NCBI GenBank assembly: GCA_965199495.1
Contig: CBDASK010000003.1
Location: forward strand, 3,360,001 to 3,424,000
Source of the DNA: Abditibacterium sp.
Lineage (GTDB): Bacteria; Armatimonadota; Abditibacteriia; Abditibacteriales; Abditibacteriaceae
Direction: 5' to 3'
DNA length: 64,000 nt
Part shown: piece by piece, positions 4,711-62,340 of the stretch
How positions within the stretch are numbered: the stretch's first letter is position 1
Layout of the letters: every line of letters begins with the position of its first letter
Position numbers and translations under genes: made by a program
The notes under the pieces: generated by a model
Database searches by the model: none
What the model was told of the DNA's origin: nothing
The model's input: the letters and a program-made list of their open reading frames with translations, nothing else

Positions 4711-5459
4711 CTATGGCACAGCCAATTTGCGTAATGCTCTTCGACCAAACCGCACGCGCGGCCCCAGGGCTTGGGCGCAAAAATTTTGGGTCGGCCACTG
4801 GGGTTCACGTTCATAATGCTCAACATTGTCTCGTCAATTGTCAATTGAAGCACGCCCGGTTCGAGCCGCTGATGAATCGTTTCGTGTTCTACGCCCGCTT
4901 TCATCATCGCGTTAATTCGCTCGAAGAGTTCGAGATGGCAGCGCATTGTTCCCAACCACCATTCGTCGAAAGTCGTGGCATAATTTACATCGCCCGCATA
5001 CGGACTAATGCCAGTTTCCCAGCGCGCGTCCCACCAAACTTCGCCCGCGTTCGGCCCCTTAAGCACCAACAGAAAATAGGTCGCGCAACCGTATTCGCCG
5101 ACTTCAATGACGCCGGGAATGGCGCTGTCCCACAATTCGTCGGGCGTCTCGCCGTTGAATGCCGTCGTCTCGGCATAGGGAAAATTTTGGTCGAGTTGCG
5201 GCGCGTCCAAACTCAACGGCGTCACGCCGTAATATGGGCCGGGGCCACCGTTGCCAAGTTCGGTGAGAAAGCGGCGATAAGCTAACGGTAGCACGACTGC
5301 GTAACGGCGCTCGAACGCTTCGACTTGCGCAATTGAAAGCGGCGCCGGGAAGCGGTAATTGTAACGCCCGGCGCCAAAGGCGACGCGGCGGCAGTCCAAC
5401 TTTGTTAATTTGGCGATTAACGTTTTGACCTCAGCGATGAAATCGGCGGAATCGTCCAT
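4698..5459 (-). CDS. SMI1/KNR4 (SUKH) family protein
   Basis: QVEAFERRYAVVLPLAYRRFLTELGNGG.GP.YG and GCA...L...G...GEVW motifs. Confidence 0.85.
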   Translation of the reverse strand: MDDSADFIAEVKTLIAKLTKLDCRRVAFGAGRYNYRFPAPLSIAQVEAFERRYAVVLPLAYRRFLTELGNGGPGPYYGVTPLSLDAPQLDQNFPYAETTAFNGETPDELWDSAIPGVIEVGEYGCATYFLLVLKGPNAGEVWWDARWETGISPYAGDVNYATTFDEWWLGTMRCHLELFERINAMMKAGVEHETIHQRLEPGVLQLTIDETMLSIMNVNPSGRPKIFAPKPWGRACGLVEEHYANWLCHSREP

Positions 5460-5594: not shown

Positions 5595-6623
5595 ATGAAT
5601 TATCATATTTTTCTCCTGTCGCTCGCCTTTGCTGTGCCCGTAGCGGCCTCTGTTCCGGAAAAAACGACGGAGAGCTGGCGACTGGTCGAACTGGTGCACT
5701 TGCGAGACTCCTTGACGAGCATGGGCCAGGTTCCTTACGGCATTACCGCGTCCGATGATTTGGTTGATGTTAACAGCGACAGATACAGCTTGAAAACTGG
5801 CGGTTTAGTCGAACAAATTGGTTTCCCCGCAGGGTTGGGTTCTTGGAATTACGGAATCGACTCCGACTCGGATCCCAATCGCAATCTGTTGGCTTTGTCT
5901 TTACAGGATAACCCGAACCAAACGTGGGCTTACCCGTTTCCGCCGACCGATAACTTCCTCAATTATGGCGATATGACCGTGCGTTTCGCGCCCGCAATAG
6001 ATCGCCTCGTGGTCACGCTCAATGGCACTTACACTCTTTGGAGCGTGCGTTCTCGTCGTTTGGAGCGCCGCGTTCGATTCGTGGATGCAGAAGCGCAACC
6101 CCACGCTTTCGGCCAGACGACGGCGCTTTCGCGCGACGGAAGCACCGTTGTTTATGCGGGTGTGAAGATGATTTTGACGGCCTCGACGCTCACCGGTCAG
6201 GTTTTAAACCGTGTTGCGATGCGGCCTTTAAGCACGAAGTATCTCGATCAGATCATTTTTGTCTCGCCTTTCGGTCGCTACGCGCTCTACGAAGCGCCCG
6301 TTGGGGCGGCTGTTTCGTCTAAAGCGCGCAAACTGACCGTGAGGGACACGCGCACAGGGCGCGCGAAGTGGGGTTTCACTTTGCCGCCCAATACTTCCAA
6401 TTCCTCTCTGGGAGATTGGCAAACCGCTTTCTCGTCCGACGAAACTCAAATCGCGGTGCCCGTGTCCGCACGAAACCTGTGGCGAATCCGCAGTTTACAA
6501 ACCGGCAAAACCATCCGCACCTTGCCACGACTGCGCGGCGCCCAAATCGCCGCCTTTTCGCCCGATAATGGCACGCTTTACTCCGTCGCCAACGGCGTTT
6601 TGTATCGCCAACGCGCGCGCTAA
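5595..6623 (+). CDS. exported WD40/beta-propeller-like protein, paralog 1
   Basis: Signal-peptide-like N-terminus; SRDG/FSSDE/FSPD blades; ends TLYSVANGVLYRQRAR. Confidence 0.75.
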   Translation: MNYHIFLLSLAFAVPVAASVPEKTTESWRLVELVHLRDSLTSMGQVPYGITASDDLVDVNSDRYSLKTGGLVEQIGFPAGLGSWNYGIDSDSDPNRNLLALSLQDNPNQTWAYPFPPTDNFLNYGDMTVRFAPAIDRLVVTLNGTYTLWSVRSRRLERRVRFVDAEAQPHAFGQTTALSRDGSTVVYAGVKMILTASTLTGQVLNRVAMRPLSTKYLDQIIFVSPFGRYALYEAPVGAAVSSKARKLTVRDTRTGRAKWGFTLPPNTSNSSLGDWQTAFSSDETQIAVPVSARNLWRIRSLQTGKTIRTLPRLRGAQIAAFSPDNGTLYSVANGVLYRQRAR

Positions 6624-34864: not shown

Positions 34865-34866
34865 AA

Positions 34867-34997
34867 AGCCACAAAGGGCACAAAGAAGCCCAAAGAAGTT
34901 AATTTGTAAAAGCAAAAATTTAAAATTTAATTCTTTACGTTTTAACTTCTTCGGGCTTCTTTGTGCCCTTTGTGTGTTCTCTGTGAACTTTGTGGGT
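34867..34997. repeat. CACAGAG-unit palindromic element, copy 2 (degenerate)
   Basis: agccacaaagggcacaaagaagccc ... gggcttctttgtgccctttgtgtgttctctgtgaactttgtgg. Confidence 0.8.
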
Positions 34998-35005
34998 AAA
35001 AACGA

Positions 35006-35034
35006 AAACCGCGCACCAATCGGCGCGCGGTTTT
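35006..35034. terminator. probable terminator of the tRNA transcript
   Basis: aaaaccgcgc-accaatcg-gcgcgcggtttt. Confidence 0.6.
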
Positions 35035-35044
35035 GATTTCTAAA

Positions 35045-35131
35045 AGGAGAGAGCGGGATTTGAACCCGCGATAGTTTTTACGCTATAACTTCTTAGCAGG
35101 AAGTCGCCTTAAACCACTCAGCCATCTCTCC
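35045..35131 (-). tRNA. tRNA-Ser(GCT), atypical (U discriminator, short variable stem)
   Basis: GGAGAGA acceptor, ACTTC-CT GCT AA-GAAGT anticodon arm, GCGGG-TTCAAAT-CCCGC T arm. Confidence 0.85.
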
Positions 35132-35200
35132 AGATGGGTGAATTGAAAAGCGACTATAACTTCGATTTTTCATGGTTTAAGGCGACCTCCGTTAGAGATT

Positions 35201-35283
35201 TGCACGAGAGAGGACTTGAACCTCCACGCCCTTGCGGGCACTAGATTCTGAGTCTAGCGCGTCTGCCATTCCGCCACTCGTGC
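35201..35283 (-). tRNA. tRNA-Leu(CAG)
   Basis: GCACGAG acceptor, CTAGA-CT CAG AA-TCTAG anticodon arm, variable arm, GGTTCAAGTCC. Confidence 0.95.
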
Positions 35284-35334
35284 GAGTGCTTTTAGCGAAG
35301 TCGGGTTGGGAAACAACGCCAAAGGCAAAGAGAA

Positions 35335-35363
35335 ATTATAACGTTTGGCGCCCGATGCGTCAA
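35335..35363 (-). promoter_or_regulatory. sigma70-type promoter for the Leu-Ser tRNA pair
   Basis: TTGACG-17 bp-TATAAT on the minus strand. Confidence 0.8.
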
Positions 35364-35389
35364 GCCAATTCGCGATAAAATTTAACGCG

Positions 35390-36292
35390 ATGATTTTAGC
35401 TCTGGAACTCCAGCCCGACAGCGCACGCGGCCACGCGCTCGACGAGATGGGAACCATTCAATATGCGCGCGTCCACTCTTTGGCTTCGGCTTTGACGCCC
35501 GCGCAAAGATGGCTCGAACTCATCGAATTGGCGCGCGACGTGGGCGCAGGCGTCGCGCTCGAACCCGCGCAAATGGCGCGCATTGTTCTGGTTTTTCCGG
35601 GCGAACTTGACGCCGCCGGGCGCGTGAAGGCGGGCGCCGATGGTTTCGGCGGCTACGACTTAAAACGCGGATTGCGCGAACATTTGCACACGGGCGAGGC
35701 CGAAATCGTCGTCGCCTCGGACGGCGTGGCTGATGCGTGGGCGCAGACGCAAGCGGGCGTGTTGCGCGAATGGGACGATTGGATTTATCTCGGCATCGGC
35801 GAGCAATTGGAAAGCGTGGCGTGCGTGCGCGGCGTTTGGCTGCAACCGAATTTGGGCGGCTTGGTTTTGCAGCGCGACGGCGCGATGGACAGCGCCGGGC
35901 GACAAGGCACGTTCAGCGCCTATTGCGCGGGATTGTCGTTTGCCGAGCGCACGCGCAGTTACAGTTTGAACGTGGCGCCGCGCGAGATTTGGGCGTTAGC
36001 CGATACGAATTTCGCCGCGCAATCGTTGGCACGCGATTACGTTTCGCGCTTGGCGCAGGGACTGGCGAGTTCGGTTGCGGCACTTTCTCCGCGTCGCATT
36101 TGCATCGGCGGCGATTTGGGGCGCGAGATATTTTCGCAAATTCACGCTGAGTTAGCGTCGGAGTTGCGAGATTATGGGCACGCTGCTGCGTGGCATGGGG
36201 CTATCGTTTTAAGCGCGTCTGGCGCGGCGCATCCCGAAAGTATCGCGCCGGGCGCGTTGGCCTTAGCCACGTTGGGCGAGCCGCCACTGTAA
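35390..36292 (+). CDS. divergent ROK family protein
   Basis: FPGELD..G, YLGIG, ICIGG pattern; canonical ROK motifs eroded. Confidence 0.55.
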   Translation: MILALELQPDSARGHALDEMGTIQYARVHSLASALTPAQRWLELIELARDVGAGVALEPAQMARIVLVFPGELDAAGRVKAGADGFGGYDLKRGLREHLHTGEAEIVVASDGVADAWAQTQAGVLREWDDWIYLGIGEQLESVACVRGVWLQPNLGGLVLQRDGAMDSAGRQGTFSAYCAGLSFAERTRSYSLNVAPREIWALADTNFAAQSLARDYVSRLAQGLASSVAALSPRRICIGGDLGREIFSQIHAELASELRDYGHAAAWHGAIVLSASGAAHPESIAPGALALATLGEPPL

Positions 36293-62218: not shown

Positions 62219-62241
62219 TGTCTGTGCCCCGCGCAACAGAT

Positions 62242-62331
62242 GGAGAGATACCCAAGCGGCTCAAGGGGCGGGTTTGCTAAACCTGTAGTCTGGCGTAAGC
62301 TGGAGCGAGGGTTCGAATCCCTCTCTCTCCG
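62242..62331 (+). tRNA. tRNA-Ser(GCT), canonical
   Basis: GGAGAGA acceptor, TT GCT AA loop, long variable arm, GGTTCGAATCC, G discriminator. Confidence 0.93.
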
Positions 62332-62340
62332 TTCAAAATT

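Follow-up and report, generated by a model that had tools for sequence, protein, structure and literature searches.

A spare tRNA-Ser(GCU) gene of Abditibacterium behind a complementary leader with a short reading frame: a candidate leader-peptide switch on tRNA maturation

The Leu-spacer-Ser cassette and its distribution

Within the window (the whole stretch of 64,000 nucleotides that was analysed), a housekeeping tRNA-Leu(CAG) gene is followed on the minus strand by a 69-nt spacer and a second gene for tRNA-Ser(GCU), and the three lie between a promoter and an intrinsic terminator. The features are listed below in the order of transcription, under names that anticipate the reading we favour; "lock" stands for the predicted fold in which the spacer pairs with the tRNA.

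35335 to 35363, minus strand: predicted sigma-70-type promoter (TTGACG, 17 nt, TATAAT) driving Leu-spacer-Ser; 11/12 matches, 0.6 expected in shuffles
35284 to 35334, minus strand: tRNA-Leu 5' leader, predicted hairpin, near-invariant across three genomes (G000, G011, G004)
35201 to 35283, minus strand: housekeeping tRNA-Leu(CAG) (ARAGORN and Rfam)
35191 to 35200, minus strand: Leu trailer, 10 nt, variable; a weak 4-6 bp hairpin is possible over the Shine-Dalgarno sequence (cloverleaf-forced fold; variants by hand)
35173 to 35190, minus strand: lock arm a, complementary to tRNA-Ser nt 16-33, from the D-loop to the anticodon stem
35185 to 35190, minus strand: Shine-Dalgarno sequence GGAGGU, the first 6 nt of arm a
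35093 to 35173, minus strand: mini-ORF of 26 aa (P0001, MKNRSYSRFSIHPSGEMAEWFKATSC), AUG at 35173, UAA in the tRNA-Ser anticodon loop
35159 to 35161, minus strand: candidate sensor codon 5, AGU, unchanged in G011, X2, X5 and the X3 loose end
35153 to 35155, minus strand: candidate sensor codon 7, AGU, unchanged in the same four versions
35144 to 35172, minus strand: side hairpin of the lock; UG of the start codon is paired in its stem, and the two AGU codons lie in its loop or next to it
35132 to 35143, minus strand: lock arm b, pairing with tRNA-Ser nt 5-16 and thereby occupying the 5' acceptor strand
35045 to 35131, minus strand: extra tRNA-Ser(GCU), anticodon 35095-35097 (ARAGORN tRNA-Ser(GCT); Rfam, 57.4 bits); U73, CCA not encoded
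35005 to 35034, minus strand: intrinsic terminator 3' of tRNA-Ser (terminator scan)
62241 to 62332, plus strand: canonical tRNA-Ser(GCU), housekeeping copy (tRNA call)

The positions of promoter and terminator suggest that tRNA-Leu, spacer and tRNA-Ser are transcribed as one RNA. Both promoter hexamers of this genome (G000) are retained in G011 and G004. The promoter spacer varies among the three, unlike the near-invariant tRNA-Leu 5' leader, which includes seven nucleotides identical to tRNA-Ser nt 26-32, a stretch that could form weak pairs with arm a or around the AGU codons. In the other members of the genus that were fetched, a terminator stands directly 3' of tRNA-Leu(CAG). Beyond the terminator of the cassette, positions 34865-34998 of the window form a long imperfect palindrome (52-nt arms; 137 short blastn matches in the genome) that is missing from the same site in G011 and G004.

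The tRNA-Ser(GCU) at 35045-35131 has the features of a class II tRNA-Ser, namely a cloverleaf, a long variable arm and the pairs G1-C72, G2-C71 and A3-U70. We regard it as a spare because a canonical copy exists at 62241, matched in 25 of the 27 genomes of the family. U73 was considered as a defect of the spare and rejected, the genome's tRNA-Ser(UGA) also ending in U73. The 3' half of the spare recurs in 5/28 genomes of the order (G000, G011, G004, G012 and G010); it is accompanied by the lock in G000 and G011, and in G004 the 5' half is replaced. A related additional tRNA-Ser(GCT), lacking both the lock and the AGU frame, is found at a different site in G012, G010 and also G002 (L049 about 1437-1529, L034 and L035). 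This site lies between what we take to be a transaldolase-like gene and rplD of a ribosomal protein operon; in G000 it holds a palindromic repeat and no tRNA. Other unusual tRNA calls in G000 (contig C3, 1551844-1552003, 3473050-3473125, 4284143-4284216 and 4621966-4622040) comprise short-armed tRNA-Leu (TAA, CAA, TAG; 73-76 nt), a "Stop" tRNA with anticodon TTA, and tRNA-Ile(TAT).

The spacer was found in two of 401 genomes of the phylum, G000 and G011, besides two weak chance matches. Four further versions of the cassette come from four metagenomes of four studies (DNA contigs, depth 2-5), X2 and X5 being whole and X3 and X4 partial. A scan of 110 metagenome stretches gave unrelated tRNA-Ser genes among the matches listed; viral scans, likewise among the matches listed, returned unrelated tRNA-Ser genes only, and phage records four weak tRNA-Ser matches only. 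At least 170 viral tRNA-Ser(GCT) were sampled with no case of a Ser(GCU) lock containing its own codons, and few RNA runs matched, each with 0.10 or less of the query words.

Complementarity between the spacer and its own tRNA

An earlier note on this DNA had described inverted arms at 35099-35116/35173-35190 (18 nt, one G-U in the transcript) and at 35118-35127/35132-35141 (9/10 paired), nested into one hairpin incompatible with the cloverleaf. The coordinates are borne out, and folding of spacer plus tRNA confirms the nesting. The predicted lock is a three-way hairpin of -59.6 kcal/mol (z = -6.1; 0/200 shuffles equal it) in which all of tRNA-Ser nt 5-33 but one base is paired, and the computed probability of the acceptor stem is 0.00 with the spacer and >0.99 without it. 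When the precursor was folded in the two states, as that note had proposed, the lock beat the cloverleaf in the absence of a ribosome by 26.7 kcal/mol in G000 and 21.1 kcal/mol in G011. The leader:tRNA duplex (-42.8 kcal/mol) ranks first of the 66 tRNA calls in its own genome and first of the 580 distinct tRNA+leader pairs fetched, and we therefore do not ascribe the complementarity to chance; in G011 the duplex energy is about -37, and similar values arise by chance in the GC-rich leaders L226 and L393. The arms are a mirror image of tRNA-Ser nt 5-33, centred at the tRNA 5' end, and match the extra copy, not the canonical one. The 10-nt direct copy of the tRNA that had also been pointed out (35083-35092/35154-35163) is present and is not conserved as a copy, 2-4 of its 10 positions differing in G011, X2 and X5; we prefer to assign it to the mini-gene described below, since the first AGU and the greater part of the second lie within it. 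The inner pairs of the side hairpin are not retained in G011.

Absence of the complementarity in relatives had been named as telling against a switch; every relative with an intact tRNA at the cassette keeps the lock, G011, X2 and X5 as a whole and X3 and X4 in part. The comparison of X2 to X5 rests on the differences listed, a further 12 standing outside that list. Among those listed, none separates X2 from G000 in tRNA-Ser, against 11 substitutions and 2 gaps for the spacer. G011 and X4 share a compensatory change in the anticodon stem, from a U-A to a C-G pair, and changes in the variable arm are confined to its loop, the stem being intact. As this is an extra copy with a compensated anticodon stem, both folds therefore appear selected. 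As to covariation, these few, related sequences showed no paired changes in leader and tRNA that compensate each other.

The arms of G000 and G011 are identical at 25/28 positions, against 243/341 four-fold sites of the flanking genes (P = 0.02). Within the spacer, variable sites number 6/28 in the arms and 16/41 elsewhere, a difference that is not significant (p = 0.19) in a count that excludes G011 positions 35143-35150 (one-base shift). Two of the six arm changes produce G-U pairs in arm a, one an A.C mismatch, and three lie in arm b with pairing still possible; on manual reading, arm b of X2 and X5 pairs with tRNA nt 3-9 in a shifted register. The A.C mismatch, at 35183, occurs in 5/5 relatives covering the site, at which G000 pairs, so that a perfect arm a is peculiar to the G000 strain. 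The idea of an invertible segment was rejected by reasoning (56 bp between the arms, no joints in the metagenome contigs and a mid-arm mismatch in relatives).

The short frame and its AGU codons

The first bases of arm a, GGAGGU, can form six pairs with the 16S tail of the genome (SD:anti-SD duplex -10.7 kcal/mol), and an AUG starts eleven bases after them. This spacing is long: 13 nt counted from GGAG, a value seen in 9/190 cases in a genome whose peak is at 7-8. The frame has 26 codons, enters tRNA-Ser at codon 15 and meets UAA in the anticodon loop; G011 shares with G000 the Shine-Dalgarno sequence, the AUG, the open frame and the stop. The AUG is likewise unchanged in X2 and X5, the distance from AUG to tRNA is 42 nt in all four whole versions, and the three net indels among the metagenome versions all fall outside the frame (among the differences listed).

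Codons 5 and 7 are AGU, which is decoded by tRNA-Ser(GCU) through wobble, in 5/5 readable versions (G000, G011, X2, X5 and the X3 loose end). Seven of the nine sites in codons 3, 4 and 6 vary and none of the six in the AGU codons (Fisher p = 0.007, with classes picked after the pattern was seen and strains that are related). Codon 6 reads UAU, CGC, CAC, CGA or AGC among the versions on manual reading; it is AGC in X5, which therefore has three consecutive codons read by the GCU anticodon. As a control, a Shine-Dalgarno sequence with ATG occurs in 43 of the 580 tRNA leaders, and two or more cognate codons follow it only in G000, G011 and one tRNA-Met for which its own start codon is counted. 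Across the phylum the SD-ATG-tRNA-Ser pattern was found in 10/401 genomes, the eight others having no cognate codons, nor a lock where the tRNA was called.

These observations make the mini-gene inside the arms a likely sensor. The sensor codons are two only, and AGU is not very rare in this genome (5.8 per 1000, 10% of Ser codons). The Shine-Dalgarno sequence may have arisen simply because arm a is antisense to the anticodon stem, and codons 7-8 can pair with tRNA-Ser nt 26-30, so that both elements have an alternative, antisense explanation. Neither of the two mini-ORF peptides was found in the protein collection searched.

A candidate switch, its relatives and its rivals

The effect of a ribosome was computed under two assumptions. 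When only the RNA downstream of the ribosome folds, a ribosome parked on an AGU codon reduces the gap between lock and cloverleaf to 0.2-3.7 kcal/mol, and an initiating ribosome, which covers the whole of arm a, leaves a gap of 10-11 kcal/mol. In this downstream-only model the acceptor stem reaches a probability of 0.81-0.83 at codon 7 with an 18-nt 3' edge and 0.09-0.20 at the AGU codons with a 15-nt edge; the computed switch point lies at codons 7-8 and is not sharp at codon 5. Under a plain footprint mask, which allows pairing across the ribosome, the acceptor stem stays at 0.00 for codons 1-20 in G000 and G011. Tertiary tRNA folding, which is outside the model, would favour the cloverleaf. 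Bacterial RNase P requires the acceptor/T-arm stack. The eukaryotic enzyme needs paired first acceptor bases (PMC7954030). The genes for RNase P RNA and tmRNA are present in the genome, in which a search for RNase Z gave below-cut-off matches only.

We consider it reasonably probable that the cassette is a leader-peptide switch that acts on the folding and maturation of a tRNA, with feedback on the supply of tRNA-Ser(GCU); the spare would probably be set free only once a shortage of that tRNA makes ribosomes stall. By default, as computed, the 5' half of tRNA-Ser would be covered by the folded spacer, which would keep RNase P from the acceptor strand and bury the Shine-Dalgarno sequence of the mini-gene itself. 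With enough charged tRNA-Ser(GCU), a ribosome loaded during transcription would reach the stop codon in the anticodon loop and the lock would shut behind it. Were the housekeeping tRNA-Ser(GCU) (62241..62332) in short supply, the ribosome would pause at AGU codon 5 or 7 and keep the arms apart, whereupon the cloverleaf could form and RNase P could free tRNA-Ser; the cut would leave the leader without a stop codon, and rescue of the tmRNA type would be needed. The cis-antisense switch of the earlier note is supported as a switch on tRNA folding; the note named no trigger, and the mini-gene that it had missed adds a likely sensor.

Serine starvation of B. subtilis increases ribosome density at UCN but not at AGC/AGU codons (PMC3862929). 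If B. subtilis is a guide to Abditibacterium, AGU would report the supply of tRNA-Ser(GCU) rather than serine, and isoacceptor supply is the more likely signal. More tentatively, the locus might be a chromosomal stand-by tRNA that regulates its own maturation, its 5' half doubling as mRNA and a starved ribosome unlocking it, and that replaces the housekeeping isoacceptor when this is cut, blocked or over-drawn (toxin, phage, defence nuclease). Promoters, gene dosage and decay are generally credited with setting tRNA levels in bacteria; codon-sensed processing, if true, would be a level of tRNA control, and a tRNA maturing on demand would feed back directly on one tRNA species. It would also offer a reason why some genomes retain seemingly redundant tRNA genes and mean that tRNA gene counts can overstate the available tRNA, and the self-contained module of 160 nt would serve as a codon-specific sensor.

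In leader-peptide transcription attenuators (trpL, hisL, leuL, thrL, and pheM of pheST), the position of a ribosome on a translated short frame with codons for one tRNA selects the fold. The cassette shares with them the short frame with one-tRNA codons, the exclusive folds and, as proposed here, feedback on decoding capacity; it has an ORF with Shine-Dalgarno sequence and start codon (at long spacing), conserved related codons (two only) and folds that exclude each other (computed). The terminator scan found no terminator-like site in 35132-35200, the sole strong one being 3' of tRNA-Ser, and since no terminator stands between leader and tRNA the cassette is not a transcription attenuator by membership; its output would be tRNA folding instead, and its frame runs through the regulated gene to a stop in the anticodon loop. 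Translational attenuation of the ermC/cat type, where a ribosome stalled in the leader frame exposes a downstream element otherwise sequestered by a hairpin, is likewise post-transcriptional. In the cassette the masked element is the 5' half of a tRNA, followed by a terminator, and not the ribosome-binding site of a protein gene, and the trigger would be a hungry codon, not a drug-peptide stall. The 3'ETS-leuZ of E. coli is also a spacer 3' of tRNA-Leu in a tRNA operon, but it binds sRNAs in trans, whereas the spacer described here is complementary in cis to the next tRNA and contains a reading frame. For T-boxes, no Rfam match at E up to 10 was obtained in 34950-35400. The best reading is that of a variant of ribosome-mediated attenuation; such an output, or any account of leader-peptide control or codon-sensed maturation of a tRNA, was not found in the literature searched, which was available in part and had subscription journals mostly outside its scope.

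Among the rival explanations, it is unlikely that the switch is coupled to translation without sensing codons, so that any loading ribosome opens the lock, output tracks general translation or a ribosome-dependent nuclease that cuts the leader, and AGU is kept for another reason. The conserved Shine-Dalgarno sequence, AUG and frame, the coverage of arm a at initiation and a switch point at codons 7-8 would all agree with this, but the gap that persists with an initiating ribosome would not, and it leaves unexplained why the invariant codons are those read by tRNA-Ser(GCU) and why codon 6 is AGC in X5. We also think it rather unlikely that the arms are an old inverted-duplication scar from the arrival of the extra tRNA, the null explanation of the earlier note, with an accidental mini-ORF and a tRNA that matures constitutively or never. 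The mirror symmetry of the arms about the tRNA 5' end fits such an origin, and the mismatches of relatives that G000 has not, the non-significant variability of arms versus rest, and the narrow distribution with decay in G004 are in keeping with it. However, the codon-wise conservation of AUG and AGU does not fit a scar, five of the six arm changes keep, restore or leave unaffected a pair and the sixth accompanies a new pairing register, and a neutral lock of 21-27 kcal/mol would not be expected to last alongside a tRNA that is under purifying selection.

A cis switch independent of ribosomes, in which a trans RNA, a protein or a nuclease binds or cuts the side hairpin and so frees the tRNA, is quite unlikely: the conserved AGU-NNN-AGUCG motif is located in a hairpin loop and its AGUCG has a possible partner, CGACU, in the tRNA or the Leu leader, but the inner pairs of the hairpin are unconserved, no Rfam family fits the spacer, and conservation follows the triplet register together with the AUG. 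A ribozyme or known ncRNA was rejected on the same absence of an Rfam fit to the spacer.

Very unlikely, finally, is a released spacer acting in trans, whether as the tRNA sponge suggested by the earlier note, an idea for which we see no support, or as a CreT-like RNA sequestering tRNA-Ser(GCU); the arms match the spare and not the canonical copy. CreT of CreTA combines a Shine-Dalgarno sequence and an AUG with codons for a single tRNA and a stable fold; its codons are consecutive and rare, and it also has a stem-loop downstream and a repressor that is CRISPR-like, CreA (PMC8501985). The first four features are found in the cassette too, and its genome has a type I CRISPR-Cas locus. Against this, its Shine-Dalgarno sequence is hidden inside the lock and its cognate codons, AGU-X-AGU, are neither consecutive (save in X5) nor rare; CreT removes a tRNA, whereas the cassette has the cognate tRNA in the same RNA and would supply it. 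No CRISPR-like creA was found at the G000 or G011 cassette, and G000 has no repeat within 7 mismatches outside its array and none near the cassette at 9 mismatches. A CRISPR link in G000 was also rejected for spacers, the best of 130 matching the cassette over 10 nt only.

The decayed version in G004 has lost the AUG (ACG instead) and the 5' half of the tRNA, the Shine-Dalgarno sequence and AGU codon 5 remaining. At this locus (L003 1677-1807; G004:C8:601336-601466), a degenerate copy of the genome's own CRISPR repeat (23/29) and a second repeat end stand directly before the anticodon, and the intact tRNA-Ser 3' half is able to pair with the upstream SD purines. It is, in this one genome, either a wrecked cassette or a Cas6-cleavable tRNA-like RNA; each of the two 12-mers that follow the pseudo-repeats is unique within G004. 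Elsewhere, between cas6 and a putative cas8 of the type I CRISPR locus (L214 about 5797-6100, i.e., G000:C3 about 2757800-2758100; L212 about 4770-5050 in G004), a hydrophobic ORF of ~60 aa precedes a degenerate repeat and a spacer-like stretch similar to the beginning of that ORF, and the interval has the appearance of a module of the CreTA/CrePA type. In G011, a solitary CRISPR repeat lies apart from the array (L216 502-530, G011:C219).
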